Shown: positions 31,980 through 59,458 of the stretch, in pieces | Position numbering within the stretch: position 1 is the stretch's first letter | Layout: each line of letters starts with the position of its first letter | Source: Bacteroidales bacterium | Lineage (GTDB): Bacteria; Bacteroidota; Bacteroidia; Bacteroidales; P3 | DNA: 64,000 bases | Direction of reading: 5' to 3' | NCBI GenBank assembly: GCA_017962545.1 | Contig: JAGCVD010000036.1 | Span: 33,148 to 97,147 of the forward strand | The notes under the pieces: generated by a model | Told to the model about the DNA's origin: nothing | The model's database searches: none | What the model saw: the letters and a program-made list of their open reading frames with translations, nothing else | Program-made: the position numbers and the translations under genes

Positions 31980-31984
31980 AATTT

Positions 31985-32070
31985 GAATGTTTGAGTGTGT
32001 GAATGTGTGAGTGTGTTAGTTGGGCGGCAGCCACTTACACATTTACTTATTATCACATTTACACATTATC
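31985..32070. repeat. GT-arm/AC-arm hairpin repeat, copy X
   Basis: gtgaatgtgtgagtg (31999-32013) pairs with cacttacacatttac (32032-32046). The same arms occur at 44578-44617. Confidence 0.75.
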
Positions 32071-33372: not shown

Positions 33373-33398
33373 ATTTTCAGCAGGGCGCGTCAGCCTTC

Positions 33399-33427
33399 TA
33401 TAACCTATAACCTTTAACCAATAACCT

Positions 33428-33430
<3 letters not shown>
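33399..33430. repeat. heptamer-periodic spacer (tataacc tataacc tttaacc aataacc ttta) at the moxR stop
   Basis: Read directly. On the minus strand it reads TAAAGGTTATTGGTTAAAGGTTATAGGTTATA. Confidence 0.8.
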
Positions 33431-34378: not shown

Positions 34379-34386
34379 TTTTCTTA

Positions 34387-34420
34387 ATTGAGAATTGAAA
34401 ATTGAGAATTGAGAATTGGG
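34387..34420. repeat. heptamer tandem repeat (attgaga attgaaa attgaga attgaga attggg) in the moxR leader
   Basis: Read directly; period 7, about 4.9 copies. Confidence 0.85.
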
Positions 34421-34452
34421 AGGAGTGGCGCCGCGGTCTTACTTCTTAGTTC

Positions 34453-37925: not shown

Positions 37926-37951
37926 TTCCTAATTTCTAATTCCTGATTACC
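37924..37951. repeat. heptamer-periodic spacer (aattcct aatttct aattcct gattacc) between the guaB stop and the PPIase start
   Basis: Read directly; period 7, 4 copies. Confidence 0.75.
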
Positions 37952-43338: not shown

Positions 43339-44565
43339 ATGAAAAAGATTTTCGCCATCCTCGGCGCATTTGCCATCTGCGCCACCGCTATGGCCCAGGA
43401 GCCTAAGCAAGAAGAACAGAAAGAAGACGAGGGCTACAAGTTCACCGTCGTGAAGGAACTGCCCGTGACCTCCGTCAAGAACCAGCACCGCGCCGGCACC
43501 TGCTGGTGCTACAGCGGCCTGGCCTACATCGAGGCCGAACTGCTCCGCATGAACAAGGGCGAGTACGACTTCAGCGAGATGTACATCGTCGAGAACACCT
43601 ACAACGACCGCGCCATGGCCGCCATCCGCACCAGCGGCGACGTGAGCTTCAGCCAGGGCGGCTCGTTCTACGATGTGATCTACGGCATGAAGACCTTCGG
43701 CCTCGTGCCCGAAGAGGAGATGCGCCCCGGCGTCATGTACGGCGACACCCTCTCCGACCACAGCGAGCTCAGCGCCGTGACCAACGCCATGGTCAAGGCC
43801 ATCGCCAAAGGAGAACTGAAGAAACTCCAGACCAGCCCCGACGGCCAGCTGCTTTGCATGAAGGCCATCCGCGCCGCCCACGCCATCTACCTCGGCGAGA
43901 TGCCCGAGAAGTTCAACTACAAAGGCCGCGAGTTCACCCCGAAGAGCTTCTATGAGAGCCTCGGCCTCAACCCCGACGACTATGTGAGCATCACCTCCTA
44001 CACCCACCATCCCTTCTACGAGAAGTTCGTCCTCGAAATCCAGGACAACTGGCGCTGGGCCCAGGTCTACAACCTGCCCCTCGACGAGATGATGCAGGTG
44101 ATGGACAACGCCATCGCCAACGGCTATCCCATCGCCTGGGGCAGCGACGTCAGCGAGCAGGGATTCCGCATGGGCACCCGCAAGGGTTTCTGCGTGCTCC
44201 CCGCCACCGAGGTGAGCGCCTCCATGGGTAGCGACATGGCCCACTGGACCGGCATGAAAGCCAAGGACATCCAGGACGAGGCCGGCAAGCACCCCACCCC
44301 CCAGCGCTGGGTCACCCAGGAAGAACGCCAGATGGCCTACGACAACCGCGAGACCACCGACGACCACGGCATGCTGATCTACGGCACCGCCAAGGACCAG
44401 ATGGGCAACGAGTATTTCATGGTGAAGAACAGCTGGGGCGACTATGGCGAGTATCACGGCATGTTCTATGCCTCCAAAGCCTTCGTCCGCTACAAGACCA
44501 TGAACTTCATCGTCCACAAGGACGCCCTCCCCAAGGACATCAAGAAGAAACTTGGTATCAAGTAA
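43339..44565 (+). CDS. C1-family (PepC-like) cysteine peptidase with a signal peptide
   Basis: NQHRAGTCWCYSGLAYIE catalytic Cys, ...DHGMLIYG..., FMVKNSWG. Signal peptide AICATAMAQE. Confidence 0.85.
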   Translation: MKKIFAILGAFAICATAMAQEPKQEEQKEDEGYKFTVVKELPVTSVKNQHRAGTCWCYSGLAYIEAELLRMNKGEYDFSEMYIVENTYNDRAMAAIRTSGDVSFSQGGSFYDVIYGMKTFGLVPEEEMRPGVMYGDTLSDHSELSAVTNAMVKAIAKGELKKLQTSPDGQLLCMKAIRAAHAIYLGEMPEKFNYKGREFTPKSFYESLGLNPDDYVSITSYTHHPFYEKFVLEIQDNWRWAQVYNLPLDEMMQVMDNAIANGYPIAWGSDVSEQGFRMGTRKGFCVLPATEVSASMGSDMAHWTGMKAKDIQDEAGKHPTPQRWVTQEERQMAYDNRETTDDHGMLIYGTAKDQMGNEYFMVKNSWGDYGEYHGMFYASKAFVRYKTMNFIVHKDALPKDIKKKLGIK

Positions 44566-44569
44566 TTGT

Positions 44570-44625
44570 TTGAATGTGTGAATGTGTGAGTGGCTACCGC
44601 CTCACTTGCACATTTACACACTTAC
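44570..44625 (+). repeat. GT-arm/AC-arm hairpin repeat, copy Y (possible terminator of the peptidase gene)
   Basis: gtgaatgtgtgagtg (44578-44592) pairs with cacttgcacatttac (44603-44617). All three non-Watson-Crick positions are G-U on the plus-strand RNA. There is no T run. Confidence 0.7.
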
Positions 44626-44627
44626 AC

Positions 44628-44667
44628 ATTAACACATTAACCCATTAACACATTAACCCATTACACC
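44628..44667 (+). repeat. 16-bp tandem repeat (attaacacattaaccc x2.5) abutting the start codon
   Basis: 44628-44643 equals 44644-44659 exactly. The partial third copy ends at the ATG at 44668. Confidence 0.9.
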
Positions 44668-45171
44668 ATGAAAAGAAACATTCTTATTGTTGCCGCTTTT
44701 ATCGGTAGTCTTTTCCTCGCCTCGTGCGGTGAGAACAAAGACGCAAAATTCATGAAACAGGCCGACGACATGTTCGCCCAGGCAGAACAAGACCTCCAAG
44801 GCATTGACAACATCGACGACTTCTTCACCTTCTACGGTGAACTCCAGGAGAAGAAGGACGGCATACTCATGGAAATGATGGAAGCCTATGTCCAAACCGA
44901 CTCTACAGTCGAGGCTGTCCCCGAAGATGTCCGCCTCCACATCTACAACCGCGCCACCGAGTACAACAAGGTGGAGGCCGTCAAGTACGCCGAGCTGTTC
45001 GACCCATTCCTCGCCAACCTGGAGAACGCCCTCGAGGCCAACGACAAGGAAGCCGCCAAGAACGCTCTGGACGCCATGATGCCATACGCCATGTACGACA
45101 ATGTCGTCCCTGAACTTCAGGAACGTGCACAAGTCGCTGTCGTCAAAGCGGAAGCAATGGGTCTGCTTTAA
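44668..45171 (+). CDS. hypothetical helical lipoprotein
   Basis: Lipobox FLASCGEN. 167 aa, Glu/Ala/Lys-rich. A strong terminator follows. Confidence 0.6.
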   Translation: MKRNILIVAAFIGSLFLASCGENKDAKFMKQADDMFAQAEQDLQGIDNIDDFFTFYGELQEKKDGILMEMMEAYVQTDSTVEAVPEDVRLHIYNRATEYNKVEAVKYAELFDPFLANLENALEANDKEAAKNALDAMMPYAMYDNVVPELQERAQVAVVKAEAMGLL

Positions 45172-46602: not shown

Positions 46603-47757
46603 ATGAAGAATATTATTATTGTCACGCTCCTCGCCACGCTATTTGCCTGCTGCGGGAAAAACGACGGCAAGGCCCCCGACACTTCCGAGCCTCCCACCGC
46701 TGAACCCATTGAGTATTACGAGCAATGCATCTTCCGCCCAGGCGACTATGGCAGCACCAACTGGCGCATCCCCGCCATCCTGTGTCTCAAGGACGGCTCG
46801 CTGCTCATCGCCTGCGACAAACGCAAATACAACGAGAGCGACCTGCCCGAGGATATCGATATCGTCGTGCGCCGCAGCACCGACCGCGGGCGCACCTGGA
46901 CCGAGCCGCTCACCATTGCCGAGGGACAGGGCCACAAGAAGGGTTTTGGCGATGCCGCCCTGGTGGAATGCGCCAACGGCGACGTGGTGTGCGTCTTTGT
47001 GGGTGGCAACGGGTTGTTCGCCTCGTCCGAGGCCGACCCCATACGCAGTTACGTGTGCCGCAGCACCGACGGTGGCCAGACATGGTCCACACCCGAGGAC
47101 ATCACAGCCCAACTCTGGGGCAGCCAGGCCGTGAACGCCACCTGCCGCAACTACAGGGCCTCTTTCTTCGGGTCGGGCAACGGACTCCGCCTCACCGGTG
47201 GAGACCACGCCGGACGTATCATGTTCGCCGCCGCCATGTGCCGCAAGCCCTCGTCCAACTATACGTTGGACAACTTCGTGGTCTACAGCGACGACAACGG
47301 ACACTCCTGGCAGGTCTCGGACTGCGCCTACACAGGCGGCGACGAGGCCAAACTCATGGAACTGACTGATGGCCGCGTGCTTATCAGCGTGCGCCAGAAC
47401 GGGGCACGGGGATTCAACCACTCCTCCGACGGCGGCAAGACCTGGGGCACCCAGGGTCGCTGGGACTGCATGACCACCAACGCCTGCAACGGCGACATGC
47501 TGCGTGTGGGCGATGTTCTGCTGCACAGCATTCCCAACTCCATGCAGCGCGAGAACGTCAGCATCTTCGTGAGTCGCGACGAAGGCGAGACATGGCAGGA
47601 TCCCGTCCTGCTCTTCGAGGGTCCGTCTGTGTACTCCTCCCTCACCCTGCTCAAGGACGGGAGCGTGGGAGTCTTTATTGAAGAAAACCCCAACGGGGCC
47701 TGCGAACTCTGGTTCCAAAACTGGCCCTTGGAGCAATTGGGAATTGAGAATAGATAA
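46603..47757 (+). CDS. exo-alpha-sialidase (GH33) lipoprotein
   Basis: Lipobox LFACCG, RIP motif (NWRIPAI), and five Asp boxes (STDRGRTW, STDGGQTW, SDDNGHSW, SSDGGKTW, SRDEGETW). Confidence 0.92.
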   Translation: MKNIIIVTLLATLFACCGKNDGKAPDTSEPPTAEPIEYYEQCIFRPGDYGSTNWRIPAILCLKDGSLLIACDKRKYNESDLPEDIDIVVRRSTDRGRTWTEPLTIAEGQGHKKGFGDAALVECANGDVVCVFVGGNGLFASSEADPIRSYVCRSTDGGQTWSTPEDITAQLWGSQAVNATCRNYRASFFGSGNGLRLTGGDHAGRIMFAAAMCRKPSSNYTLDNFVVYSDDNGHSWQVSDCAYTGGDEAKLMELTDGRVLISVRQNGARGFNHSSDGGKTWGTQGRWDCMTTNACNGDMLRVGDVLLHSIPNSMQRENVSIFVSRDEGETWQDPVLLFEGPSVYSSLTLLKDGSVGVFIEENPNGACELWFQNWPLEQLGIENR

Positions 47758-47769
47758 TAGAGAAGTGAA
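47735..47769 (+). repeat. heptamer-periodic stretch (aattggg aattgag aatagat aatagag aagtgaa) spanning the sialidase stop and the pdxK start
   Basis: Read directly; period 7, 5 units. Confidence 0.7.
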
Positions 47770-48751
47770 ACAGATACTGCTTATCAACGACGTTGTGGGC
47801 CACAGCCATGTGGGCATGGTGGCCATGCTGCCCATCCTCACCTATCAAGGGCACTCCGTTTATAACCTGCCCACAGCACTCGTCTCCAACACTCTCGACT
47901 ACGGCAACTTCAACGTCATGGAGACAACAGAATACATGCGCGGCACACTGCCCGTGTGGCAGAAACTGGGATTCCGTTTCGACGCCGTCTGCACCGGGCT
48001 CATGTTCAGCGAGGAACAGGCCCGCCTTGTGGCGGACTACTGCACCCGCCTGCACGGCGAGGGGACGACGGTGTTTGTCGACCCCATCATGGGCGACGGA
48101 GGCCGCCTCTACAACGGCATCACCCAACGGCAGGTGGAGCTCATGCGCGAGATGGTGGGCGTGGCCGACCTCACCTTCCCCAACTACACCGAGGCTTGTT
48201 ATCTTGCCGGCATCCCCTTCAAACCCGAAGGCATGACATGGCCTGAGGCATGCGGACTGCTCGACAGTATCGTCGGCCTCGGCGCCCGCTCGGTGGTGGT
48301 CACCAGTGCCCGCGTCGACGGAAAGACCTGCGTGATAGGGGTTATGACACACTCCTCAGTCAGCAAAGCTGACAGCTGGCTCCACAAGGTCGCCGACCAC
48401 AGTTCCCCTAACTTAGGGGAGCAGCCGAAGATACAACCGGCTTCCGCCCACTCCTCCCCTAAGTTAGGAAGAGAAATGCCAGTGGCATTTCGGGCAGAGC
48501 ATTGTGCGCAACAACGGGCCGGAGGAGTGTGTAACTATTTCCTCCTCCCCTACCACGAACTCCCCCTCGCCTTCCATGGCACGGGCGACATCTTCTCGGC
48601 CGTTCTCATCGGCCACCTGATGAACGGTGAATCCCTCAAGGCGAGCACCCAGACGGCCATGACCGTCGTCAGCCGTCTCATCGACCGCAACCGCGACCAG
48701 CAAGACAAATGCCTCGGCATACCGATAGAACAATGTCTGGACCTACTATAG
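47765..48751 (+). CDS. pdxK: pyridoxal/pyridoxamine kinase carrying a 62-codon in-frame repeat-element insertion
   Basis: I propose a GTG start at 47765 (VKQILLINDVVGHSHVG...), because the tracked ATG at 47678 overlaps the sialidase gene. PfkB-type motifs are present (FDAVCTGLM, VFVDPIMGD, HGTGDIFSAV). nt 48347-48532 are a foreign repeat element. Confidence 0.8.
   Translation: MKQILLINDVVGHSHVGMVAMLPILTYQGHSVYNLPTALVSNTLDYGNFNVMETTEYMRGTLPVWQKLGFRFDAVCTGLMFSEEQARLVADYCTRLHGEGTTVFVDPIMGDGGRLYNGITQRQVELMREMVGVADLTFPNYTEACYLAGIPFKPEGMTWPEACGLLDSIVGLGARSVVVTSARVDGKTCVIGVMTHSSVSKADSWLHKVADHSSPNLGEQPKIQPASAHSSPKLGREMPVAFRAEHCAQQRAGGVCNYFLLPYHELPLAFHGTGDIFSAVLIGHLMNGESLKASTQTAMTVVSRLIDRNRDQQDKCLGIPIEQCLDLL
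48347..48532 (+). mobile_element. MITE-like palindromic element, copy A (186 bp, no transposase)
   Basis: 11-bp terminal inverted repeats, ACACACTCCTC ... GAGGAGTGTGT. The first ~122 nt match the reverse complement of 59268-59389. It contains CCCCTAACTTAGGGG and CCCCTAAGTTAGG. Confidence 0.75.
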
Positions 48752-48752
48752 C

Positions 48753-48785
48753 AGAAGAGGGTGCCTTCATCGGGCGCCCTCTTCT
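48753..48785. terminator. hairpin between convergent pdxK and DUF2461 genes
   Basis: agaagagggtgcc-ttcatcg-ggcgccctcttct (one wobble). Confidence 0.6.
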
Positions 48786-48786
48786 A

Positions 48787-49494
48787 CTATAGAGTATCTT
48801 TCACCTCCTCCATGGCTCGCTGTATAAAACGGTTGAGCGGGAGGCTGGCACGCCAGATCTCGACGACACGGTCAGAAAAGTCGGGGGCGGTGACGGCATC
48901 CTCAGGGAGGGTGTGGGTGGTGCAATAGTCTTTGTATTTCAACAGGTCGGCATGTTCCCAATCGGCGGGATAGCCTTTAGGAACGCGCGAGAGTTTCTTG
49001 ATGGTGAAGAACTCCTTGCCGAAATACCGCTTATAAGAGGAGTTCGACATGATGGCAAGGAATTCGTCGGGACAATAGAATATCTCCTGCCGGATGGCCG
49101 CCAACGACGCCGGAGCAGGCATGAAGATGCCACCGCCGAGGTTGCAGGTGCCCGTCAGGCCGTAGGCCTCCTCCGACCCCACCTGCAGGTAGTAGCCCGG
49201 CACGCCGCTGTTTTTCTTTCCCCACGAGGAGAGGAAGCAGGCGATGTGCGTCTTGTAGGGCGTCTTGTCGTTCGAGAAGCGCGTGTCGCGGTAGATGCGG
49301 TACATGCAACCCTTGGCGGTGAGCCCCTCCAATGTCGGGTCGAGGGCCGACATCTTGTCCAGCAGCTCCTGCGTGAAGGCCTCGAACTGATTCCTGATGG
49401 CCTCCCAGCGGGGCTTGTTGTCCATGAACCATGGACGGTTGTTGTTCTGTGCCAGCTCCCGGAAGAACGGCAGGGTGTCGGGATGTATTGTCAT
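48787..49494 (-). CDS. DUF2461 (TIGR02453) family protein
   Basis: FFRELAQNNNRPWFMDNKPRWE...YRIYRDTRFSNDKTPYKTH... is the characteristic family pattern. Confidence 0.8.
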   Translation of the reverse strand: MTIHPDTLPFFRELAQNNNRPWFMDNKPRWEAIRNQFEAFTQELLDKMSALDPTLEGLTAKGCMYRIYRDTRFSNDKTPYKTHIACFLSSWGKKNSGVPGYYLQVGSEEAYGLTGTCNLGGGIFMPAPASLAAIRQEIFYCPDEFLAIMSNSSYKRYFGKEFFTIKKLSRVPKGYPADWEHADLLKYKDYCTTHTLPEDAVTAPDFSDRVVEIWRASLPLNRFIQRAMEEVKDTL

Positions 49495-49496
49495 AG

Positions 49497-49528
49497 AAAG
49501 TTGCGAGGGCTCTCGCCCTCACAACTTT
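49497..49528 (-). terminator. hairpin after the 948-aa cargo gene
   Basis: aaagttgcgagggc-tctc-gccctcacaacttt. The single mismatch becomes G-U on the minus-strand RNA. Confidence 0.55.
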
Positions 49529-49540
49529 AGTGTGGTCTTA

Positions 49541-52387
49541 TTAGCGCACCACGATGCGGCGGGCGGGCAGGCTCGCAACCTTGACGAGGTAGACACCCGT
49601 CTGCGGCAGACGGATGTACTGCTCGTCGCTGGCGACGGCGACATGGCCCACCAGGCGGCCGGCGACGTCGTAGACGTTGACGGTCATCTGGGCAGCGCCA
49701 CGCACCACCACACCATTCTCGCGGGCGGCGATGGTCACGCCGGCAGCCTCGGCGGCGTCGATGCCGTTGGAACGTGCGAAGAGGGCGGCGATGACGATGT
49801 TGCTGTCGACGGTGACGGTGTAGGTTTCACTGGACTCAAGCAGGTCGGCGGTCATCTGCGTGACCGAGAAGGTATACCAACCTTGGAAGACGTAGCCTTC
49901 ATCGGGCGTGGCGGTGAGGGTAGCCTCGCTGCCGGCAGCATAACGGCCAGCACCCCTGACGGTGCCACCCACATTCATCTCATAGTCCGTGTTGACCACA
50001 TAGACGGTCACCGTGTAGTTGATGTCGTTGTTGGTGGTGAACAGGCAGCTCTCCGACCAGTCGGTCTCCTCGCCGTCGCAGAGGCCCTGCACCTGGAACT
50101 CATAGGTCGTGTTGGTGTCGAGGCCTTCGAGGTCGAAGCTGTTGGTGTTGACGTTGACGTAGGTCCATTCACCGGCGGGAGCCGCCTCGCGAGAGCAGTT
50201 GAAGTCGTCAATGAGGAGGTAGTTGGCATCGTAGTCCACATGGTGGATGGCGATATAGCCGTAGCCGCTGTAGCGGCCCAGGTTGATGGACACTTTGTTC
50301 CACTCTCCGTTGTCGGGAGCGGGAGCCATGGCCTGGAGGGTCACGGTGAAGCTGGCGGTGTCGTTGTTCGTGGTGGAGAGGAGCACCTCGTAGCTGTCGG
50401 GCCAGCTTGAGTTGGTGCGCACCCAGAAGGTCAGGGAGTCACCCAGGGGCACCTGCGGGGTCACCAGCCAGTTGTCGGCCTCGAGGGCAGAGCTATTCCA
50501 GCTCCATGCACTGGCGCAATAGTCGCCGCTGTGGGCCGGAAAATCGAGTTCATCCGAGGCGGGATTATAGGTATACCAGCCTTCGCTGTGGCCGTCGACG
50601 GTGTCGCCCGCCGTGTAGATGGTCCACTGGCTGAGGCCGTTCTCGAAGTCGTCGTTGATGCCCTCGTAGGTCGCGGCGGTGCGATAGCGCACAACGTAGG
50701 CGGAGTCGAAGCCGCGCCAGTTGAGGGTGGCCGCGTTGCCGGCGACATCCGTGGCAGCCAGGAGTGTGGGCACGGGGCAGGCAACGTCGGTGGTGAAGAA
50801 GGTCGCGGTCCAGGCACTCATGCCGTCAACGGCACCGCAGTTGCCCTTCACGCGCACATAATAGCCCGTCACCGGGGTGAGGTCTTCAAGTGGGTAAGGG
50901 CTTGTGGCGTTGTTCATGTGAATCCACATCAGGTCGGCGTTGTCGACAAAGGCACGGATCATGAAGGAGGCATCTTCAGCACTCTCATAGAAATCGCCCA
51001 AATCGGCCCATTCGTTATCGTACATAATCCATCTGCCGTTCTCGCCGCCGTCGTTGCCACTCAAAGCCATGAAATAGGTGCCGGTGGCCGTGAGGGTAAT
51101 CCAGAGGTTCTGGGTTTGGTTAATCTGGATGGGGTTGATATAGACCTCGCGCATGCCGTTGGTGCCTTCGGTGGCCACGGTGACGGTGCCGATGAGGGTG
51201 CCGGGGGCATCGTCGCCGCCGCTGTAGATGTTCACCGTGACGGTGTTGTCGGCATAGTAGTTGTTGGATGTCTCATAGAAGGCAATCTTCGTGAGGAAGT
51301 TGCCCGTGAGCATCGAGGAGGGGTACATCACGCCCCAAGTCCATGTTTGGTCAGTTTCAGAACCCACCCTTTCAGATACCGTGTCGTTGTCATACTGCAG
51401 CCAGGTGGCAGTGGCGCTGGGGGTGTAGGCGGCATATTCGAGGTCGTAGCTGTTGCTGGTGCCGTTCCACATCACGTCGGCGGTGAAGCCCGAGATGTTG
51501 TCGACAGCGAGATCCGTGGGGGCTGGGCAGGCCACGTCGGTGGTGACGCTGACAAGGGCCATGCGCGAGGCGTCGGTGGCTGAGCAGTTGACCTCCACGC
51601 CGAAGGTGTAGCGAGTCTCGGGGGTGAGGCCGGTGACGGTGTAGGTGGCGGCGGTGATGCCGGTGGCGACAATCGAGGTGTCGGTCATGTTATACACCGA
51701 GTAGTTGGCGCCCGTGTTGATGGTGTCGACCCAAGTGAGGGTCACCTCGTGGTTGGTGACGTTGCTGGCGGTGAGGTTTCTCACGGGGAAGCAGGGGGAC
51801 GAGCCGGCGGGGTAGTAGTCGAAGGTCACCCTGGGGAGGAAGTCGCGCTGGGTGGCAGAGACGGAGGACAGGTCGCTGTAGCTGTAGCCCTGCACGCTCG
51901 CACCGGTGGAATCGACGCCCGTCCAGGTGGAGGTGACGTAGGTGCCTTCGACAGTATTTTCCACAGCCACGAGGAGGTTGCCGCCATTGTAGGAGTAGGG
52001 GCTGTCGAAGGTGACGACCATGGTGTTGTTGCTGATGCTCAGGCTGCCGGAATAGACTTGCGTCATGCCCGAGACGGTGGCGAAGTCGCTGATAGTGCTG
52101 CCAGGCACCTCGGAGAGGTAGACATTGAAGTGCGCATCGCCCCAGTCGACGGAGCTCTGCGCGGCGTAGAATGTCATCCCGGTGAGGGTGCCGCCACCCA
52201 TGGTGGTGAGGATGTCCGACGGATAGACGAAATGCGCCTTCAGGTAGGCATCGCAATAGAAGCCGTAGACAGGTACATAGCCATTGGAGGCCGAGCCGTT
52301 GCACACAGTCAGTGTCGACTGTGCCTGCATCGACCACGGCATCATCAGTGCCGCGAGCAGCAGGAGTTTTTGTAAAGTTCTTTTCAT
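49541..52387 (-). CDS. T9SS cargo surface protein (948 aa): N-terminal beta module, FN3-like domains, cleaved-adhesin-like domain, InlB-B-repeat-like domain, CTD
   Basis: Signal peptide (MMPWSMQAQ). FN3-like CFPVRNLTASNVTNHEVTLTW...YTVTGLTPETRYTF. DFENGLSQWTIY...DNWLVTPQV resembles the gingipain/HagA cleaved-adhesin domain. The C-terminus ...RLPQTGVYLVKVASLPARRIVVR is a T9SS CTD. Confidence 0.85.
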   Translation of the reverse strand: MKRTLQKLLLLAALMMPWSMQAQSTLTVCNGSASNGYVPVYGFYCDAYLKAHFVYPSDILTTMGGGTLTGMTFYAAQSSVDWGDAHFNVYLSEVPGSTISDFATVSGMTQVYSGSLSISNNTMVVTFDSPYSYNGGNLLVAVENTVEGTYVTSTWTGVDSTGASVQGYSYSDLSSVSATQRDFLPRVTFDYYPAGSSPCFPVRNLTASNVTNHEVTLTWVDTINTGANYSVYNMTDTSIVATGITAATYTVTGLTPETRYTFGVEVNCSATDASRMALVSVTTDVACPAPTDLAVDNISGFTADVMWNGTSNSYDLEYAAYTPSATATWLQYDNDTVSERVGSETDQTWTWGVMYPSSMLTGNFLTKIAFYETSNNYYADNTVTVNIYSGGDDAPGTLIGTVTVATEGTNGMREVYINPIQINQTQNLWITLTATGTYFMALSGNDGGENGRWIMYDNEWADLGDFYESAEDASFMIRAFVDNADLMWIHMNNATSPYPLEDLTPVTGYYVRVKGNCGAVDGMSAWTATFFTTDVACPVPTLLAATDVAGNAATLNWRGFDSAYVVRYRTAATYEGINDDFENGLSQWTIYTAGDTVDGHSEGWYTYNPASDELDFPAHSGDYCASAWSWNSSALEADNWLVTPQVPLGDSLTFWVRTNSSWPDSYEVLLSTTNNDTASFTVTLQAMAPAPDNGEWNKVSINLGRYSGYGYIAIHHVDYDANYLLIDDFNCSREAAPAGEWTYVNVNTNSFDLEGLDTNTTYEFQVQGLCDGEETDWSESCLFTTNNDINYTVTVYVVNTDYEMNVGGTVRGAGRYAAGSEATLTATPDEGYVFQGWYTFSVTQMTADLLESSETYTVTVDSNIVIAALFARSNGIDAAEAAGVTIAARENGVVVRGAAQMTVNVYDVAGRLVGHVAVASDEQYIRLPQTGVYLVKVASLPARRIVVR

Positions 52388-52450
52388 GTTTGTTTGTTGT
52401 TTGTTGATGGATATTGTTTGTTGTTATTGTCGCAATAGCCTATACTCCAA

Positions 52451-52475
52451 CCTTTGCCACCTACCGTGGCAAAGG
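52451..52475 (-). other. 5'-leader stem-loop (10-bp stem) of the 948-aa cargo gene
   Basis: cctttgccac-ctacc-gtggcaaagg, 11 nt downstream of the -7 box. A positional homologue lies at 59153-59179. Confidence 0.55.
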
Positions 52476-52486
52476 CTTTCCGTTTG

Positions 52487-52494
52487 CAAATATA
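52487..52494 (-). promoter_or_regulatory. candidate -7 box (TATATTTG on the minus strand)
   Basis: The plus strand reads caaatata, about 100 nt upstream of ATG 52387. It is conserved at the paralogous position 59191-59198. Confidence 0.55.
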
Positions 52495-52514
52495 CGACTT
52501 TTTCCCATAATAAC

Positions 52515-52550
52515 ACAAGGGGCCCGCGAAATTTTTCGCGGGCCCCTTGT
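52515..52550 (-). terminator. GC-rich hairpin terminator after the 2172-aa cargo gene
   Basis: acaaggggcccgcgaaa-tt-tttcgcgggccccttgt, 22 nt after the stop codon. Confidence 0.7.
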
Positions 52551-52571
52551 TGGGAGTGTTAGGTCTGGACC

Positions 52572-55500
52572 TTACTGTCTGACCACGACGCGGCGGGCGG
52601 GCAGGTCGGCGACCTTGACGAGGTAGACGCCCGTCTGCGGCAGACGGATGAACTGCTCGTCGCTGGCGGCAGACACATGGCCCACCATGCGGCCGACGAC
52701 GTCGAAGACGTAGACCTCAGCCTCGGCGGCGCCACGCACCACCACACCGTTCTCACGGGCAATGATGGTCACGTTGGAGGCGTCGACAGCGTCGATGCCG
52801 ACATTGGCGCGGAAGGCGGCGGTGAGGGCCATGGTGGTCTGTTCGAGGGTGATGGTGAAGTACTCGAGGCGGCTGAGGGTGTCGCCCTGAGCATTGACCC
52901 AACCGAGGAAGGTGCTGTTGTTGACGGCGACGGCTGTCAGCGTGACCTCATCGCCCAGGGTGCCACGATAGACGTTGAAGGGCATCTGCTGGCCGTTGAA
53001 GAGCACCTGGCCCAGCGTGCTGTCGACCTGGACGGTCAGCAGGGCACTGTTGGCGCCGATGCGCTCGAACATGGCCACCACGACGACATTCTCTTCGAGG
53101 GTGAAGGTGTAGACACTGTCGGCGGTAATCAGCTCGCCACCGAAGCCCATGGCGGAACGGGTGTACCATCCGTCGAACAGGTAGCCGCTGTCAGGCGTGG
53201 CGGTGAGGGTCACCTCGGTGCCGGCCAGGTAGGAGCCTGCACCCGTGACGGTGCCACCCACATTCAGCAGGCCTTCGGTGTTGGCCACCACGATAGCCAC
53301 ACTGTAGTAGTTACCAATGGTGAGCACAAGGACTTCGGTGCTGTCGCAACCCGCAACGGTCTGGGTATGGAAGTAGTAGGTACCCGACTCGGTGTAGACC
53401 GAGTCATGCCAGGTGTAGCTCTCGAGGGCGATGACGGAGTCGACAATCTCGACGCTGTGGTTGACCGTGAGGGTGATGGTGACGATGCTGTCGCAACCAG
53501 CAATGGTCTGCAGCGAGTCGATGATGACGGTCGAGGTGGTGTACCACACGTCGTTCCACTGGAGGCTGTCGCAGTCTGCCTGGCCATCGTTGTACGTGGT
53601 GCTGTAGTTGATGGTCAGGTGCAGGGTCGTCACGCTGTCGCAACCAGCGGCGTTGGTGGTGGTGTCAGTCGGTGTGTTGGTGCTGGCGGTGTAGGCGGTG
53701 CCATGCCAGGTGTAGCTGTCGCAGGCCGTCACGGTCTCAGTGCCCGTGGTGCTGTAGTTGAGGGTGAGGTTCAGCGTGTCGGTGCCGTGGTAGTAGGTGC
53801 CGCCCACGGTGTAGGTGGTGCCAAACCAGGTGTAGCTGTCGCAAGCGGTGATGTCCGTCGTCGAGCACTGGATGATGGTCAGGTGCAGCGTCGTCACGCT
53901 GTCGCAACCGGCGGCATTGGTGCTGGTGTAGGTCGGCGTGTTGGTGCTGGCGTTGTAGGTCGTGCCGTGCCACACATAGCTGTTGCAGGCCGTCACAGTC
54001 TCGATGCCCGTGTTGCTGTTGTTGATGGTCAGGTGCAGGGTCGTCACGCTGTCGCAGCCGACGGCATTGGTGGTGGTCCTGGTGGGATTGGCAGAGCTGA
54101 TGTAGTTGGTGCCGTACCATGCGAAGCTGTCGCAGGCGATGGCGAAGGTGTCGCCCGTGGTGCTGTAGTTGATGGTCAGGTGCAGGGTCGTCACGCTGTC
54201 GCAACCGACGGCGTTCATGCTGGTGTCGGTCGGCGTGCTGGTGCTGGCGGTGTAGGCGGTGCCGTGCCAGGTGTAGCTGTTGCAGGCCGTCACGGTCTCG
54301 ATGCCCGTGTTGCTGTGGTTGATGGTCAGCACCAGGGTGTCGGTGCCGTCGGTGTAGGTGCCACCCACCGTGTAGGTGTTGCCATGCCAAGTGTAGCTGT
54401 CGCAAGCGGTAATCTCAGTCGTCGAGCACTCGATGATGGTCAGGTGCAGGGTTGTCACGCTGTCGCAGCCGGCGGCATTGGTGGTGGTGAAGGTCGGCGT
54501 GTTGGTGCTGGCGGTGTAGTTGGTGCCATGCCACACATAGCTGTTGCAGGCCGTCACCGTCTCGATGGCCGTGTTGCTGTAGTTGATGGTCAGGTGCAGG
54601 GTCGTCACGCTGTCGCAGCCAACAATGTTGGTGCTGGTGTAGGTCGGCGTGTTGGTCGAGGCAGTGTAGTTGGTGCCGTGCCAGGTGTAGCTGTCGCAGG
54701 CCGTCACCGTCTCGGTGGCCGTGTTGCTGTTGTTGATGGTCAGGTGCAGGGTCGTCACGCTGTCGCAACCAGCGATGTTGGTGCTGGTGTAGGTCGGCGT
54801 GTTGGTCGAGGCGGTGTAGTTGGTGCCGTGCCAGGTGTAGCTGTCGCAGGCGGTCACAGTCTCGATGCCCGTGTTGCTGTAGTTGACCGTCAGGACGAGG
54901 GTATAGATAGAGTCGGCATTGGGGGCATAGACAGTGTCGGCGACCGTGGTGCTGGCAATGTAGTTGGTGCCGCGCCAGATGTAGCTGTTGCAAGCCGTCA
55001 CAGTGTCGTTGGCAAAGGCCTGGAGATTGACGCTGTCGGTGGTGAACCGCAGCGAGGTGCTCCAAGCGGTGACGCCGCCGTCGCAAATCGAGTTCACACC
55101 CTGCACTTCCCATGCATAGGTGGTGAGGCTGTCGAGGCCGGTGAGCTGGTAGGGGTTGGTGACGTTGTTCACCACCGTGGTGTCGGAGGCGGGAATTAGC
55201 AGCGGGGTGGTGGAGACAAACACGCCGAAGACTTCTGCGGCCCAGCCCGGGTCTTGGCCTCTCGCCACGAAGGTGAGGGTGCCGCCCAAAGCCACATTCG
55301 GGATAATCATCCAGTTGTCGGGATACAGAACATCGTTGTTGTAGCTTGCGGAAGTGGCGCAATAGCTGCCGTTGCCCACATCGTGGCCGTTGCCATCCTG
55401 GCTGGTACTCTGAATATACCAATTCTGTCCGTCGCCGTCTTGGTCGGCGATGACCCAGTTGGCGGGCATCACGCCCGACTCGAAGTCCTCGTTGACGATG

Positions 55501-58500
55501 GTATCGCCATTGGCGTTGGTCAGCACGATGTCGTCGATGTTCAGGCGGAACATGTCGGTGACGTGGTAGTGGCGGAAGGCCACATTGCCCGTGCCGGTGA
55601 AGCCGCTCAGGCTGACGGTGTATTGGGTCAATGTATCATGAGCCGTGGAGTCTCCTCCTATTTGCGTGAAGTTGGCCGTATCGAAATTACTAATCCGAGC
55701 CGGCTGCCAGTAGCGCACATTGTAGCTCTCCTGATAGCCAATCCAGTCGAGGGTGGCGCGGTTGGAGAGGACGTAGGGGTTTGTCAGGCTGTTGGGAGCA
55801 GCGCAGGGCGAAGGTGTGGTGAAGCTGGTCATAGTCCAGGCACTCTCGCCGTCGACGGCACCGCAGTCGCCTTTCACTCTGGTGATATAGCCCGTCTCGG
55901 GAGTCAGACCCGTGAGAGAGGCGGGGGAGGTGGCATTGAGGACGGTGGTCCAGGTGAGGGAATCGAGGTTGAGGGGGGTAATCTCGCCGCGAATCATCCA
56001 GCCATTGCCTGCGAGGCTTGAGGCGGCATCGCCGAGGTGCATCCAAACACCGCCATTATAGATCCACTGGTTGTTGGGTTCGGAGGAAGAGCAAGCAGAC
56101 ATGACGTAGGTGCCGTAGGCGTCAATAACAATCCACAGGTCTTGCGTGATATCAACCATCGCAGGATTGGTGAACGTAATCTCATGGAAGCCATCCGAAC
56201 CTGTGGGGGTGACAGTCTGCGAATTAAGCAGCATGATCGGCTCTGTAGCACTGCCGCTGTAGATGCTAATGGTGTAGTCCGAAGTACTGTACGATGCAGT
56301 TTCAAAGAAAGAGACCTTCGTCAACCTACCGGGAGTCAGCATCGTGGAAGGATACCTCACGCCCCACCTCCAGTTCTGCGAGGAGGAGTTACCGATGCCG
56401 TTGGTATAGGTACTGTCGTCATAGCTCAGCCAGATGGGATTAGCTACGCTGCCAGTGGAATCGGCGGGGAGGGGTGCATATTGCAGGGTGTAGCTGTTGG
56501 CAAAGTCGTTCCAGCTGGCCCTGGCGTGGGTGGGATAGATGCTGTCCATCGTCAGGTCGGTGGGAGCGGGGCAAGCGATGAGGGTGGTGGCGCTGACGGT
56601 GAGCAGGCGGGAAGCGTCGGTGGCCGAGCAGTTGGCGGCCACGCCGAAGGTGTAGGGGGTCTCGGGGGTGAGGCCGGTGACGGTGTAGGTGGTGCCGGTG
56701 ATGCCGGTGGCGACGACCGAGGTGTCGCTCATGTCATAGACCGTGTAGGTGGCGCCCGTATTGATGGTGTCAATCCAGGTGAGGGTCACTTCGTGGTTGG
56801 TGACATCGCTGACGGTCAGGGTTGTGGGCATGGGGCAGGCCACGAGGGTGGTGGCGCTGACGGTGCGCAGGCGGGAGGCATCGGTGGCCGAGCAGTTGGC
56901 GGCCACGCCGAAGGTGTAGCTGGTCTCGGGGGTGAGGCCGGTGACGGTGTAGGTGGTGCCGGTGATGCCTGTGGCGACGACCGAGGTGTCGCTCATGTCA
57001 TAGACCGTGTAGGTGGCTCCCGTGTTGAGGGTATCGGTCCATGTGAGGGTCACGCCACGGCTGGTGACGTTGCTGGCGGTGAGGCCTCTCACGGGAAGGC
57101 AGGTGACAGTGGTGGGGATGAATTCGATAGTCATCTTGGGGAGGAAGTCGCGCTGGGTAGGAGTGATGGCATCCAGGCTGCTGTAGCTGTAGTTCTGCAC
57201 ACTCGCACCAGGGGCACTGATGCCATACCAGGTAGAGGTGACGTAGGAGCCCTCGACAGTATTTTCCACAGCCACGAGGAGGTTGCCTCCCATGTAGATA
57301 TACTCCTCAGTGAAGGGAACAACCATCATGTTGTCGCTGATGCCCAGGCTGCCGGAGTAGACCAGCGTCATGTCCGTCACATCGGCAAAGTCACTGATGG
57401 TCGAATCGGTCGTCTCGGCAAGGTAGACATTGAAGTTCGCGTTGCCCCAGTTGACGGAGGATTGCGTGGCATAGAATGTCAGCTGAGTGAGGGCGGCGGT
57501 ACCCATGCTGGCGAGGTCAGTCGACGGGCAGATGTAATGCGCCTTCAGATAGGCGTCGGCATAGAAGCCGTAGACAGGCACATAGCCATTGGTGGCCGTG
57601 CCGTCGTTGATGGTGATGCTGTAGGCGTTGGAGGGGGTAAAGTCGCATACGGCGCTCCAGTCACTCGTGTCGCCGGCTCCGCAGATGGCCCTGACACGGG
57701 CATAGTGGGTAGCCTCAGCGGTGAGGCCGGTGAGGTTGAGGATGGTGGAGTCGGTCACAATGACGGAGGCGGCTGTCGAGAAGTCGGAAGCGGTGTCGTA
57801 TTCAACCTCCCAGGCGGTCTGGGTGCTGTCGGCAGTCCAGTTCAGCGTGGCGATGGTGCCGTTGCCGGGGGTGACGGTGGCTGCCAAGCCAGTGGGTCTG
57901 GTACAGACAGGTCCGGCGCCGGGGATGATTCCCAAACGGATGAGATTGCGGTATTGACGTTGGCCCTTGCTGCCGCTAAAAGAGTTCACATTTGTCAGGT
58001 CGGGAACGTAGCTGTCGCTGTAATAGTCAAGGGCGAGGTAGGTAGAGCAGCTGGAGGTGCGGAACTTGTAGGCGCTGCCCGGGTAGCCGTTGGTGGGGTC
58101 GTAGCAGCACACCAGCAGGTTGCTGATGCCGTCATATTGGAAGGGGGTGTCGAGATTGATGGTGATCCAACCTGCACTGTCAGCCCTAAGGGTGTCGGAC
58201 CAGACAAGGTCGCTGGCCGAGATGGGCTCCATATCGGTGTTGGAGGCGAAGACTGTCTTGCTCACGTTCTTCATATACATCTGAACGCCAGGCGACGCGA
58301 ATGCGGCCGTGTGGGCGTAGTTGAACGAGATGGAGGTGATGGTTCCTGCCCCGCCAATCTCTTCGGGGGTGAAGAGCTGCTGCGTCAGGGAATAGTTAAA
58401 GTACGTGTTGATGGGCAGGTAGTAGTAGTTGGCGGTGTTGGCGGTGTCGCCGATGGTCACAGTGGTGGCAGTGCCGCCGCCGGGCTGGATGAGCAGCTGG

Positions 58501-59090
58501 ACGTTGGGTCTGATATTTTGGGTATACTTGTTACCGGTGTACGATGCCAAGTCGTAGGGGTTCGGATCTGCGCTGTCGCTGTGTGCTGAGAAAAGGCTGT
58601 TCGGCGCAGAGGTACAGCTGAAATAGCGGGTAGAATAGCCCGAAGTCTTCTCATGCATGGCAATCATAAGGTTGCTGGTGCCGTCATACTGGAAGGGGGT
58701 GTCGAGGACGAGGGTCACCCAGCCGGTGTAGTTCATCGGGATGGTCCATGTGCCCGAAAACACAATGTCTGAGGAGTCGACGGTTTCGAAGTCCGTATTG
58801 CCAGCGAAAGACCCGCGGGTCACGTTCTTCATGAACACGTCATAATCATTGGTCTGCGTGGCCGAGGAAGATTGACCGAGGTAGAAACTCACTTCAGTGA
58901 TGGTTCCGGCAGTACCGATCAGGCTGTCGGGATAAATCATCTCCACGAAGGAGTATCCCCAAAGGGAATTGAACGGGCCATAGTAGGAAGTACTAGTCCC
59001 GTCTCCGATGGTCACAGTGTCCTGTGCCCGCGTCGCCCAGGGCACCAGCAGTGCCGCGAGCAGAAGCAGAATTTGTAGGTGTTTTTTCAT
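52572..59090 (-). CDS. giant T9SS cargo surface protein (2172 aa)
   Basis: Signal peptide (LLVPWATRAQ). It has three copies of a ~180-aa N-terminal beta module, three FN3-like domains, and a cleaved-adhesin-like domain (NEDFESGVMPANWVIADQDGDGQNWY). It also has about 12 CDSYTWHG modules, InlB-B-repeat-like segments, and a CTD (...RLPQTGVYLVKVADLPARRVVVRQ). Confidence 0.9.
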   Translation of the reverse strand: MKKHLQILLLLAALLVPWATRAQDTVTIGDGTSTSYYGPFNSLWGYSFVEMIYPDSLIGTAGTITEVSFYLGQSSSATQTNDYDVFMKNVTRGSFAGNTDFETVDSSDIVFSGTWTIPMNYTGWVTLVLDTPFQYDGTSNLMIAMHEKTSGYSTRYFSCTSAPNSLFSAHSDSADPNPYDLASYTGNKYTQNIRPNVQLLIQPGGGTATTVTIGDTANTANYYYLPINTYFNYSLTQQLFTPEEIGGAGTITSISFNYAHTAAFASPGVQMYMKNVSKTVFASNTDMEPISASDLVWSDTLRADSAGWITINLDTPFQYDGISNLLVCCYDPTNGYPGSAYKFRTSSCSTYLALDYYSDSYVPDLTNVNSFSGSKGQRQYRNLIRLGIIPGAGPVCTRPTGLAATVTPGNGTIATLNWTADSTQTAWEVEYDTASDFSTAASVIVTDSTILNLTGLTAEATHYARVRAICGAGDTSDWSAVCDFTPSNAYSITINDGTATNGYVPVYGFYADAYLKAHYICPSTDLASMGTAALTQLTFYATQSSVNWGNANFNVYLAETTDSTISDFADVTDMTLVYSGSLGISDNMMVVPFTEEYIYMGGNLLVAVENTVEGSYVTSTWYGISAPGASVQNYSYSSLDAITPTQRDFLPKMTIEFIPTTVTCLPVRGLTASNVTSRGVTLTWTDTLNTGATYTVYDMSDTSVVATGITGTTYTVTGLTPETSYTFGVAANCSATDASRLRTVSATTLVACPMPTTLTVSDVTNHEVTLTWIDTINTGATYTVYDMSDTSVVATGITGTTYTVTGLTPETPYTFGVAANCSATDASRLLTVSATTLIACPAPTDLTMDSIYPTHARASWNDFANSYTLQYAPLPADSTGSVANPIWLSYDDSTYTNGIGNSSSQNWRWGVRYPSTMLTPGRLTKVSFFETASYSTSDYTISIYSGSATEPIMLLNSQTVTPTGSDGFHEITFTNPAMVDITQDLWIVIDAYGTYVMSACSSSEPNNQWIYNGGVWMHLGDAASSLAGNGWMIRGEITPLNLDSLTWTTVLNATSPASLTGLTPETGYITRVKGDCGAVDGESAWTMTSFTTPSPCAAPNSLTNPYVLSNRATLDWIGYQESYNVRYWQPARISNFDTANFTQIGGDSTAHDTLTQYTVSLSGFTGTGNVAFRHYHVTDMFRLNIDDIVLTNANGDTIVNEDFESGVMPANWVIADQDGDGQNWYIQSTSQDGNGHDVGNGSYCATSASYNNDVLYPDNWMIIPNVALGGTLTFVARGQDPGWAAEVFGVFVSTTPLLIPASDTTVVNNVTNPYQLTGLDSLTTYAWEVQGVNSICDGGVTAWSTSLRFTTDSVNLQAFANDTVTACNSYIWRGTNYIASTTVADTVYAPNADSIYTLVLTVNYSNTGIETVTACDSYTWHGTNYTASTNTPTYTSTNIAGCDSVTTLHLTINNSNTATETVTACDSYTWHGTNYTASTNTPTYTSTNIVGCDSVTTLHLTINYSNTAIETVTACNSYVWHGTNYTASTNTPTFTTTNAAGCDSVTTLHLTIIECSTTEITACDSYTWHGNTYTVGGTYTDGTDTLVLTINHSNTGIETVTACNSYTWHGTAYTASTSTPTDTSMNAVGCDSVTTLHLTINYSTTGDTFAIACDSFAWYGTNYISSANPTRTTTNAVGCDSVTTLHLTINNSNTGIETVTACNSYVWHGTTYNASTNTPTYTSTNAAGCDSVTTLHLTIIQCSTTDITACDSYTWFGTTYTVGGTYYHGTDTLNLTLNYSTTGTETVTACDSYTWHGTAYTASTNTPTDTTTNAAGCDSVTTLHLTINYSTTYNDGQADCDSLQWNDVWYTTSTVIIDSLQTIAGCDSIVTITLTVNHSVEIVDSVIALESYTWHDSVYTESGTYYFHTQTVAGCDSTEVLVLTIGNYYSVAIVVANTEGLLNVGGTVTGAGSYLAGTEVTLTATPDSGYLFDGWYTRSAMGFGGELITADSVYTFTLEENVVVVAMFERIGANSALLTVQVDSTLGQVLFNGQQMPFNVYRGTLGDEVTLTAVAVNNSTFLGWVNAQGDTLSRLEYFTITLEQTTMALTAAFRANVGIDAVDASNVTIIARENGVVVRGAAEAEVYVFDVVGRMVGHVSAASDEQFIRLPQTGVYLVKVADLPARRVVVRQ

Positions 59091-59152
59091 TGTTTTGTTG
59101 TTTGATTAATAAGTATTGTTAGTTGTTGTTTCTCGCAAATATCTATACCATC

Positions 59153-59179
59153 GTGTTTTCCATCCATTGTGGAAAACAC
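59153..59179 (-). other. 5'-leader stem-loop (10-bp stem) of the 2172-aa cargo gene
   Basis: gtgttttcca-tccattg-tggaaaacac, again 11 nt from the -7 box. Confidence 0.55.
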
Positions 59180-59190
59180 CTATCCGACTG

Positions 59191-59198
59191 CAAATATA
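59191..59198 (-). promoter_or_regulatory. candidate -7 box (TATATTTG on the minus strand)
   Basis: The plus strand reads caaatata, about 100 nt upstream of ATG 59090. Confidence 0.55.
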
Positions 59199-59239
59199 CA
59201 ACTTTTTTTCAAATAACACAAGGGGCCCGCGTTTTTTTT

Positions 59240-59389
59240 ACACACTCCTCCGCCCTTCGGGCACCTCCCCTAACTTAGGGGAGGAGTGGCTGCCGCAGTC
59301 GGTATCTCCGGCTGCTCCCCTAAGTTAGGGGAACTGTGGTCGGCGACCTTGTGGAGCCAGCTGTCAGCTCGGCTGACTGAGGAGTGTGT
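59240..59389 (-). mobile_element. MITE-like palindromic element, copy B (150 bp), in the terminator region between paralogs
   Basis: It has the same terminal inverted repeats (ACACACTCCTC / GAGGAGTGTGT) and the same CCCCTAA(C/G)TTAGGGG pair as copy A, in the opposite orientation. It is absent from the paralogous intergenic region 52495-52571. Confidence 0.75.
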
Positions 59390-59400
59390 CCCTTAACAAC

Positions 59401-59437
59401 ACAAGGGGCCCGCGAAAAAAAATCGCGGGCCCCTTGT
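59401..59437 (-). terminator. GC-rich hairpin terminator after the third cargo gene
   Basis: acaaggggcccgcga-aaaaaaa-tcgcgggccccttgt, with the same stem as at 52515-52550. Confidence 0.7.
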
Positions 59438-59458
59438 TGGGAGTGTTAGGTCTGGACC

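Follow-up and report, generated by a model that had tools for sequence, protein, structure and literature searches.

A hairpin-doublet repeat that is probably read through as a disordered loop in a PdxK-family kinase gene of a Bacteroidales bacterium

What becomes of an enzyme when a palindromic repeat sits, in frame, within its gene? The question is raised by a stretch of 64,000 nucleotides from a Bacteroidales bacterium (contig JAGCVD010000036.1; the whole stretch is hereafter called the window), in which a kinase-like gene contains a 186-bp element with inverted ends (copy A). The original prediction, made from the letters of the window, had described this element as resembling a MITE (miniature inverted-repeat transposable element), and had left two outcomes side by side: either the enzyme tolerates a 62-residue loop encoded by a repeat, or the gene is a cryptic pseudogene. 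Our analysis favours the former, and we put at roughly 0.8 the probability that copy A is a member of a repeat family lying within a B6 kinase gene and read through as a disordered loop of 62 residues, with the enzyme still functional. The features of the gene, of copy A and of a second copy (copy B) are as follows, in window coordinates.

47765-48751 (+): host gene, a predicted PdxK-family B6 kinase of 328 aa (open reading frame, Pfam, NCBIfam, AlphaFold/Foldseek)
48347-48532 (+): copy A, a doublet element in frame, corresponding to kinase residues 195-256 (sequence, blastn, AlphaFold)
48347-48357 (+): left terminal inverted repeat ACACACTCCTC (motif scan)
48359-48373 (+): left-arm hairpin GTCAGC-aaa-GCTGAC, the counterpart of the variable hairpin HP2 of the short unit described below (folding, arm alignment)
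48378-48404 (+): 27-nt module GGCTCCACAAGGTCGCCGACCACAGTT, giving the peptide WLHKVADH (copy comparison)
48405-48419 (+): palindrome P1 CCCCTAACTTAGGGG, giving PNLG in its sole stop-free frame (sequence)
48422-48447 (+): variable spacer between the arms (the spacer diverges with insertions and deletions, the arms are nearly identical)
48448-48532 (+): right arm, an 85-nt long variant of the short unit (copy comparison)
48456-48468 (+): palindrome P2 CCCCTAAGTTAGG, within the right arm (sequence)
48522-48532 (+): right terminal inverted repeat GAGGAGTGTGT, the reverse complement of the left one (motif scan)
59240-59389 (-): copy B, a 150-bp intergenic doublet element in opposite orientation with the same two ends (blastn)

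Copy A comprises 186 nt, i.e., 62 codons, which are stop-free in the frame of the kinase-like open reading frame (ORF) at 47765-48751 (GTG start at 47765, stop at 48749-48751, 328 aa in the ORF list), and its translation, THSSVSKADSWLHKVADHSSPNLGEQPKIQPASAHSSPKLGREMPVAFRAEHCAQQRAGGVC, includes the peptides ADSWLHK, VADHSSPNLGEQPK and IQPASAHSSPK. Besides P1 and P2 it holds a third internal palindrome, aaatgccagtggcattt, and its right arm carries at 48469-48514 a stretch of 46 nt in place of the 13 nt of the canonical arm (net +33 nt), within which lies the hairpin AAATGCCA-g-TGGCATTT. The 27-nt module is not part of the canonical 126-bp element, and is found in copy B as well as in other copies of a sister genome, the metagenome-assembled genome (MAG) of the uncultured Bacteroidales Red_deer_4_mag_30 (hereafter the Red deer MAG), whose scaffold_1890 shares 96-99% identity with the window across syntenic blocks. 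When copy A was compared with the window using blastn, copy B was recovered at 91.1% identity over 124 columns (E 4e-45); stops close each of its six frames. On both copies the 11-bp terminal inverted repeats (TIRs) are perfect. Allowing at most one mismatch, the 11-mer end occurs five times in the window against 1.43 expected, its four exact matches being the four element ends, and the palindrome motif occurs seven times against 0.10 expected. As DNA, copies A and B fold far better than shuffled sequences (z -7.5 and -7.2, respectively), while copy A as RNA reaches -85 kcal/mol (z -6.4 versus shuffles); a scan of the whole window at the Rfam gathering thresholds matched no family. The element itself is thus as originally described, with its boundaries, inverted ends and open frame all seen in the sequence and the internal near-palindromes (48405-48419, 48456-48468 and a small hairpin) confirmed, except that the second copy extends beyond the 59268-59389 first noted.

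The host gene is predicted to encode a vitamin B6 kinase of the PdxK/ThiD family (ribokinase-like, PF08543), an assignment made at the family level only, with the substrate unassigned. The 328-aa protein matches Pfam Phos_pyr_kin (E 3.9e-13), and its best NCBIfam model is the pyridoxamine kinase PRK07105, which it matches with 184 bits in two stretches when the insert is present, and with 188 bits in one stretch (1-265) once the 62 residues of the insert are deleted in silico. An uninterrupted relative (P0004) scores 190.6 bits. The equivalog cut-off of the model, 231 bits, exceeds the scores of P0004 and of the window kinase with or without its insert, and because of this “pdxK” is only an approximate name: the predicted pyridoxal kinase stands as to family and fold, but falls short of the cut-off for the specific model. 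The GTGD anion-hole motif is kept (as HGTGD), with the end of the insert 14 residues upstream of it (about 15 residues before HGTGDIFSAV had been expected), and the kinase minus its insert has 266 aa, near the 267 aa foreseen. In the homologue alignment the window kinase keeps all the nearly invariant residues of the family. The identical 328-aa protein is recorded on 6 contigs, and therefore the insertion is not an assembly artefact. No terminator-like sites were found in 47600-48900.

The position of the insert within the protein was assessed from homologues and from a structural model. The homologues (n = 3665) are mostly of 268 aa or 281 aa, and the difference between the two forms is a 13-residue loop exactly at the insert position, which lies after CV[IV]G and before YF.L.Y in the alignment. 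The AlphaFold2 model, for which 114 sequences were used, is confident in its core and places the insert between the strands 187-194 and 257-262, with a predicted local distance difference test (pLDDT) score below 50 for residues 205-252. The top Foldseek match is 3MBH, a solved homologue from Bacteroides thetaiotaomicron, which aligns to kinase residues 2-186 and 258-302; 3MBH and other pyridoxal kinases were matched at a probability of 1.00, with target-normalised TM-scores of 0.80-0.83 for 3MBH/3MBJ and 0.69-0.81 for other kinases. In this model the insert is a disordered loop at the turn of a surface beta-hairpin, at a place where the family naturally varies in length. The element is carried by close relatives only (76-90% BLASTP identity over the whole protein, 82-96% in aligned columns), in which it can be recognised as one and the same DNA element, and more distant orthologues have either nothing at the insert site or an unrelated 13-aa loop. 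The refuting observation named with the original prediction, a homologous segment in unrelated PdxK orthologues, was therefore not encountered.

Versions of the element occur at the same pdxK codon in four other assemblies, which gives, together with the window, five length variants that are all in frame and open.

Window: 186 nt
L004: 126 nt, the canonical form
L005 and L006: 159 nt each, the spacer being longer
L007: deletion of the left arm; other hairpins in place of the second palindrome

The length of the insert at this site ranges from about 80 to 186 nt, and two large insertions/deletions (indels), of 27 and 33 nt and both multiples of three, separate the window copy from the 126-nt form. 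The ratio of non-synonymous to synonymous substitution rates (dN/dS, Nei-Gojobori) in the flanks of the element (789 nt coding) is 0.05-0.14 in all 15 pairs, including the element-bearing ones, at dS up to 0.8, and therefore the element-bearing gene stayed under purifying selection. An uninterrupted allele does exist in a related strain: in the Red deer MAG the kinase (L002, also L003) is free of the element and carries instead the 13-aa loop typical of distant Bacteroidales (L002 10570-10629 versus window 48334-48534), and this element-free allele is the closest to that of the window (dS 0.096). Of the 13 N-terminal differences between the two, four are found within the 18 nt that precede the loop. 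This pattern suggests homologous recombination, with replacement of a short patch to which the loop belonged, rather than a clean insertion or excision of the element. Both the precise empty pdxK site and the pdxK::element junction gave 0 matches in JGI metagenome contigs.

Copy A is not alone. Among the matches listed for species-representative genomes, the 21-nt core CCACTCCTCCCCTAAGTTAGG lies on more than 117 stretches, almost all of them from Tidjanibacter sp./Rikenellaceae MAGs of deer, goat, sheep, buffalo and cattle, the Red deer MAG by itself contributing 49 core matches, spread over 45 stretches; there were 0 matches in viral contigs. Most frequent among the forms is one unit of 48-52 nt by itself, which consists of CCACTCCTCC, the palindrome CCTAAGTTAGG, GGAGG(TG), a short hairpin of free sequence and GGAGGAGTGTGT, and which contains the sequence element CCCCTAAGTTAGGGG (consensus CCACTCCTCCCCTAAGTTAGGGGAGGTGGCCCGAAGGGCCGGAGGAGTGTGT). 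Alignment of the two arms revealed that the left arm of the full element is the reverse complement of the short unit; therefore, the 126-bp element is an inverted doublet with a variable spacer, and it has TIRs because two units sit inverted, the TIRs being their outer ends. The loci examined contain 88 single units versus ~27 distinct doublets (123-198 bp), and a stand-alone unit in L042 is a close variant of the 85-nt right arm of copy A. Compensatory changes are seen in each of the five pairs of the variable hairpin, where 95.8% of the cells are paired, with a covariation of 0.272 against 0.116 for shuffled and 0.025-0.057 for slid alignments; this measure is informative in the variable hairpin, the rest of the unit being fixed by the retrieval method. 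By these sequence criteria, copy A belongs to an abundant family of small palindromic repeats, themselves not coding for any protein, in an uncultured lineage of ruminant-gut Rikenellaceae. Within the literature searched, we found no description of MITE or repetitive extragenic palindromic (REP) elements in Bacteroidales or Tidjanibacter.

Twelve of the ~27 doublets lie inside long ORFs (pdxK counted once), as do ~7 of the 88 single units. Besides pdxK, the element is clearly read through in at least eight genes, all of the Red deer MAG, and the Pfam domains, where matched, flank the insert or are split by it.

MiaB: element between the UPF0004 and radical-SAM domains (Pfam)
AroE (shikimate dehydrogenase) (Pfam)
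Two-domain ABC ATPase: element between the halves (Pfam)
SBP_bac_5 binding protein (Pfam)
MBOAT (Pfam)
NAD-dependent epimerase (Pfam)
BrkB: element supplies the C-terminus (Pfam)
Membrane protein: no Pfam match

What is seen in pdxK is a single example of what this repeat family does genome-wide. MiaB relatives have 481, 492 and 505 aa with the element, 479 and 480 aa with degenerate inserts and 430-433 aa without, i.e., the same filled/variant/empty pattern as in pdxK. A census of host proteins by protein homology search with the canonical 42-aa peptide returned nothing usable, and an exhaustive phmmer search with the 62-aa peptide of the window gave only 9 matches against 50%-identity representatives, because these representatives are mostly without inserts. 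The BrkB-family gene of the sister genome (L015 1421-2685) has a doublet at each end, both in the same orientation, one of which supplies the C-terminal 62 residues while the other lies just upstream of the start.

The gene-embedded copies agree in orientation and frame. Through CCCCTAASTTAGGGG the sole stop-free frame is CC CCT AAS TTA GGG, and the canonical element has one open frame in either orientation. The orientation is nevertheless the same in all 12 host genes with a doublet inside the ORF, pdxK among them (two-sided binomial p 5e-4; p 0.004 with the nine clear cases only), so that the peptide in host genes reads ..SSPNLGEQP..HSSPKLGEV..GGVC. Its grand average of hydropathy (GRAVY) is -0.61 (hydrophilic), as compared to -0.27 for the unused peptide, which is richer in Trp and Cys (two and three residues, respectively). 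Of the intergenic doublets, most have no open frame among the six, whereas every gene-embedded copy is open. We infer that the orientation bias reflects a selective filter on what the protein tolerates, with an insertion bias as the alternative.

Copies also appear to change while remaining in place. Between L005 and L006, whose gene flanks have diverged to a dS of 0.46, the left arms are identical at 47/48 and the right arms at 50/52 positions, both right-arm changes being compensatory, while the spacer shows 8 mismatches and 12 gap columns. The 85-nt pdxK right arm of the window (48448-48532) is identical base for base to that of the miaB element in L128 (8001-9479), and in relatives the canonical 52-nt arm occupies both sites (pdxK of L004, miaB of the Red deer MAG). 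These patterns are most simply accounted for by an exchange of arms at fixed sites, through gene conversion among dispersed copies. In miaB, the closest filled/empty pair, from two JGI metagenomes (L126 373-1890 and L127 2486-3781), has 6 differences in 1266 flanking nt, and the linker of L126 is 222 nt longer, made up of a ~170-nt element, a second partial right end and extra flanking codons, with nothing in L127; the junction codons read QRIGAV[element]QTPAL versus ERGAH. The polymorphisms at pdxK and miaB are better read as the replacement of one allele by another than as a new insertion or an excision.

How do other explanations fare against this evidence? It is unlikely, in our view, that the loop or its mRNA hairpin has gained a function (regulation, interaction or mRNA stability) for which it is positively kept. 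Such an exaptation would agree with the persistence of the insert at one codon in lineages that have diverged to a dS of up to 0.8, with arms more conserved than the host gene and with the strict orientation bias; yet the sister genome, 97-98% identical, has an element-free allele, insert lengths run from about 80 to 186 nt, disorder is predicted for the peptide, and the arms are equally conserved in intergenic copies, as homogenisation explains. We regard as improbable that the insertion killed the kinase, the open frame being a coincidence of recent insertion. An insert of 62 aa is large, it ends only 14 residues upstream of the anion-hole motif and it splits the family-model match in two, but the element-bearing alleles have diverged to dS 0.5-0.8 with a dN/dS of 0.05-0.14, the five length variants are all in frame with both large indels multiples of three, and all nearly invariant family residues are kept. 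Between the two outcomes originally proposed, tolerance is thus favoured by the in-frame variants, the low dN/dS and the loop site, and the cryptic pseudogene recedes. Removal of the segment before the protein is made or matures (intron-like, by bypass, or intein-like), leaving an enzyme of normal size, would suit the extremely structured RNA (-85 kcal/mol, z -6.4) and is very improbable: nothing would then keep the segment stop-free and a multiple of three in length, yet the gene-embedded copies are all open and most intergenic ones closed, and no Rfam family matched. Furthermore, 62 aa is far below the size of an intein, and the insert has no intein motifs. Intron, intein and bypass readings were all rejected, as gene-embedded copies are always open and of 3n length. 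A native lineage-specific loop that happens to resemble the repeat, or an assembly chimera, has the least to commend it and may be taken as refuted, for although the site is a natural indel hot spot (268-aa and 281-aa forms), matching DNA is found at an intergenic site of the window (E 4e-45) and at more than 100 other loci among the matches listed, and the identical protein occurs on 6 contigs with variants in 4 further assemblies.

The kinase is, then, most probably functional with a disordered loop that a repeat encodes. Only one combination of orientation and frame escapes the TAA/TAG of the palindromes; copy A has this combination, and the ribosome would read through it. Insertions in other frames, in the other orientation or at buried positions would be purged by selection, and a copy once fixed would change only by indels of 3n. 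Its arms may be kept uniform by gene conversion with other genomic copies, while filled and empty alleles would be swapped between strains by homologous recombination. As to what mobilises the element, the combination of no target duplications with conserved hairpins weakly indicates a mechanism that recognises hairpins or single strands.

Several points weigh against the reading of copy A as a tolerated member of a mobile family. No direct repeat of at least 2 nt, as a target-site duplication, flanks the doublets listed or the pdxK and miaB junctions, and neither at pdxK (window/L002) nor at miaB (L126/L127) was a clean filled/empty pair found, since the junction-proximal codons differ. No IS-sized pair of TIRs enclosing a transposase, as a parent insertion sequence (IS) would be, was found in the ~0.9 Mb of loci examined, nor any transposase linked to the hairpin units, and mobility is read from dispersal and copy number alone. 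All units were retrieved through one exact 21-mer, which biases the sampling, and 3 of the 12 ORF-embedded copies lie near N-termini, where they may be leader rather than protein. Finally, no second B6 kinase was found within the 64-kb window, and a paralogue elsewhere could mask relaxed selection.

Three candidates bearing on mobility were set aside. The miaB and pdxK pairs were rejected as evidence on target duplication, their junction codons being replaced, and IS-sized TIR pairs were rejected as autonomous elements, as they are merely host genes between two separate elements. A tblastn search with approximate IS200 TnpA and E. coli RAYT (REP-associated tyrosine transposase) queries gave one weak match, which led to the sole Y1_Tnp gene in the element-adjacent 8-kb stretches (L104 4368-4820, Pfam E 9.5e-20, motifs DHVH and YIMRQKEHH). 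The motifs of this IS200-like transposase resemble subclass 1.2 of Quentin et al. 2018 (PMC6006769). The gene is bracketed by ~150-nt direct repeats (3990-4140, 4830-4980) rich in GTGCCTCCGGCAC hairpins, and was rejected as the mobiliser, as these flanking repeats are unrelated to the hairpin units; the gene and its repeats form a separate REP-like system in the sister genome.

The surroundings of copy B hold further traces of the family, which are listed here together with one remnant elsewhere in the window.

59215-59231 (+): copy of a 17-nt hairpin arm, AACACAAGGGGCCCGCG, followed by T8, adjoining the low-coordinate side of copy B (sequence)
59398-59438 (+): complete host hairpin AACACAAGGGGCCCGCG-a8t-CGCGGGCCCCTTGTT, on the high-coordinate side of copy B (sequence)
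52512-52551 (+): paralogous empty site, the hairpin of copy B's flank without an element (window versus L002)
34418-34437 (no strand assigned): remnant of a unit end, GGGAGGAGTGGCGCCGCGGT (reverse complement ACCGCGGCGCCACTCCTCCC), between AT-rich 7-mer arrays and without a palindrome

The first arm of the hairpin at 59398-59438 duplicates 59215-59231. The empty hairpin site at 52512-52551, 6.9 kb from copy B, is filled in the sister genome by a copy-B-like element (L002 14650-14799). The 17-nt duplication around copy B, which has T8 at one side and A8 at the opposite one, is common to the paralogous site and was not seen at other copies. The flanks of copy B fit better with conversion between paralogous 3' regions than with a fresh transposition. 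In this part of the window (49500-55100 and 56500-64000, both on the minus strand), as well as at 7150-8500 (+), lie very large paralogous surface-protein genes, which have tandem coding repeats of 147-150 nt (49-50 aa), with fn3, Flg_new_2 and DUF6383 in the syntenic L002, and which share conserved 3' ends and terminator hairpins. At 1-414 a 207-nt unit occurs twice in tandem with 93% identity.

The sequence at 34418-34437 may be a deletion remnant or the footprint of a short unit. The arrays around it belong to a set of AT-rich intergenic tandem arrays of 7-8 nt (TGAATGTG, CACATTAA, GAAGTAA, AATTGAG and others) in a genome of 57% GC. They are found in the window at 31984-32070, 33324-33430, 34386-34455, 37920-37948 and 44560-44670, and flank many units in L009-L125. 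Such arrays are often mutually inverted around a short GC-rich centre, and in related genomes they bracket single hairpin units. With these AT-rich microsatellite flanks, the repeat family offers a new marker for ruminant-gut MAGs and a possible source of breaks in their assembly. For annotation, in-frame inserts both lengthen proteins and split family-model matches (here 184 bits in two stretches), such that pipelines may mislabel the genes concerned. Natural filled, variant and empty alleles at 97-99.5% flank identity would, in turn, allow direct tests of what a disordered loop of 40-60 aa costs.

Does the locus then stand for something wider? That a hairpin-doublet family of free-living gut Bacteroidota routinely joins essential enzymes in one orientation and frame, with its arms subsequently swapped in place by gene conversion, is a tentative proposal about which we are more doubtful than confident. 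If true, selfish DNA would be continuously rewriting the surface loops of core proteins across strains that are still recombining, and its spread may be neither that of a classical MITE (no target-site duplication or parent IS) nor that of a canonical RAYT/REP system (no GTAG, not extragenic).

Comparison with known systems places the family between three kinds of repeat. With bacterial MITEs (ERIC/Delihas 2007; Coxiella QMITE1/2, PMC5896051; PMC10969869) it shares small size, TIRs, lack of a transposase, multiple copies and strong folding, and these, too, are occasionally intragenic, forming translational fusions or new C-termini, the BrkB case being comparable to enhC in Coxiella (PMC5896051). 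The original label “MITE-like” is sound in so far as the element is small, TIR-bounded, multi-copy and encodes no transposase, but the loci examined revealed neither a target-site duplication nor a cognate IS; moreover, internal read-through in core enzymes is much more frequent here than is reported for those MITEs, and is comparable only to that of the Rickettsia palindromic elements (RPEs) discussed below. The likeness to REPs, to their doublets (REPINs) and to bacterial interspersed mosaic elements (BIMEs) (Bertels and Rainey 2011, PMC3116915; PMC3337134) lies in GC-rich hairpin singlets and inverted doublets with a spacer, in tens to hundreds of copies per genome that persist vertically within a lineage, and in compensatory changes that preserve the hairpin with no target-site duplication. 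REPs are, however, extragenic by definition, whereas ~40% of the present doublets lie inside ORFs; the GTAG/CGTC tag (PMC3733652) or its complement is absent from the unit consensus, and where a RAYT gene would be single-copy and flanked by the same units, the one Y1 gene of the loci sampled, that of L104, has different repeats on either side.

The closest resemblance is to the RPEs (Ogata et al. 2000, 2002, as summarised in PMC10969869 and PMC1779305), which are palindromic repeats of 100-150 bp in intergenic and coding DNA of Rickettsia; they frequently lie in frame within metabolic genes that are unrelated to one another, where the fold can accommodate them. Both families are palindromic, lie between genes and also, in frame, within them, and supply unrelated housekeeping enzymes with a conserved peptide; some insertions in both predate speciation, and the mobilisation mechanism is unsettled in both. 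They differ in that Rickettsia are obligate intracellular Alphaproteobacteria with a reduced genome, while the present hosts are Bacteroidota, free-living gut anaerobes, and in that the present family has a clear doublet of units, with singles outnumbering doublets. Compared by description, and with its host among the Bacteroidota, the present family would be a functional analogue of the RPEs and not a member of RPE-1 to RPE-10. In-frame palindromic repeats are usually presented as a peculiarity of Rickettsia, tied to reduced genomes and weak selection. Here the host genes are under strong purifying selection (dN/dS ~0.1) and the strains show signs of recombination, and therefore relaxed selection is not required; should the wider proposal hold, in-frame colonisation of the RPE type would be general in bacteria, and not a by-product of weak selection in intracellular parasites.

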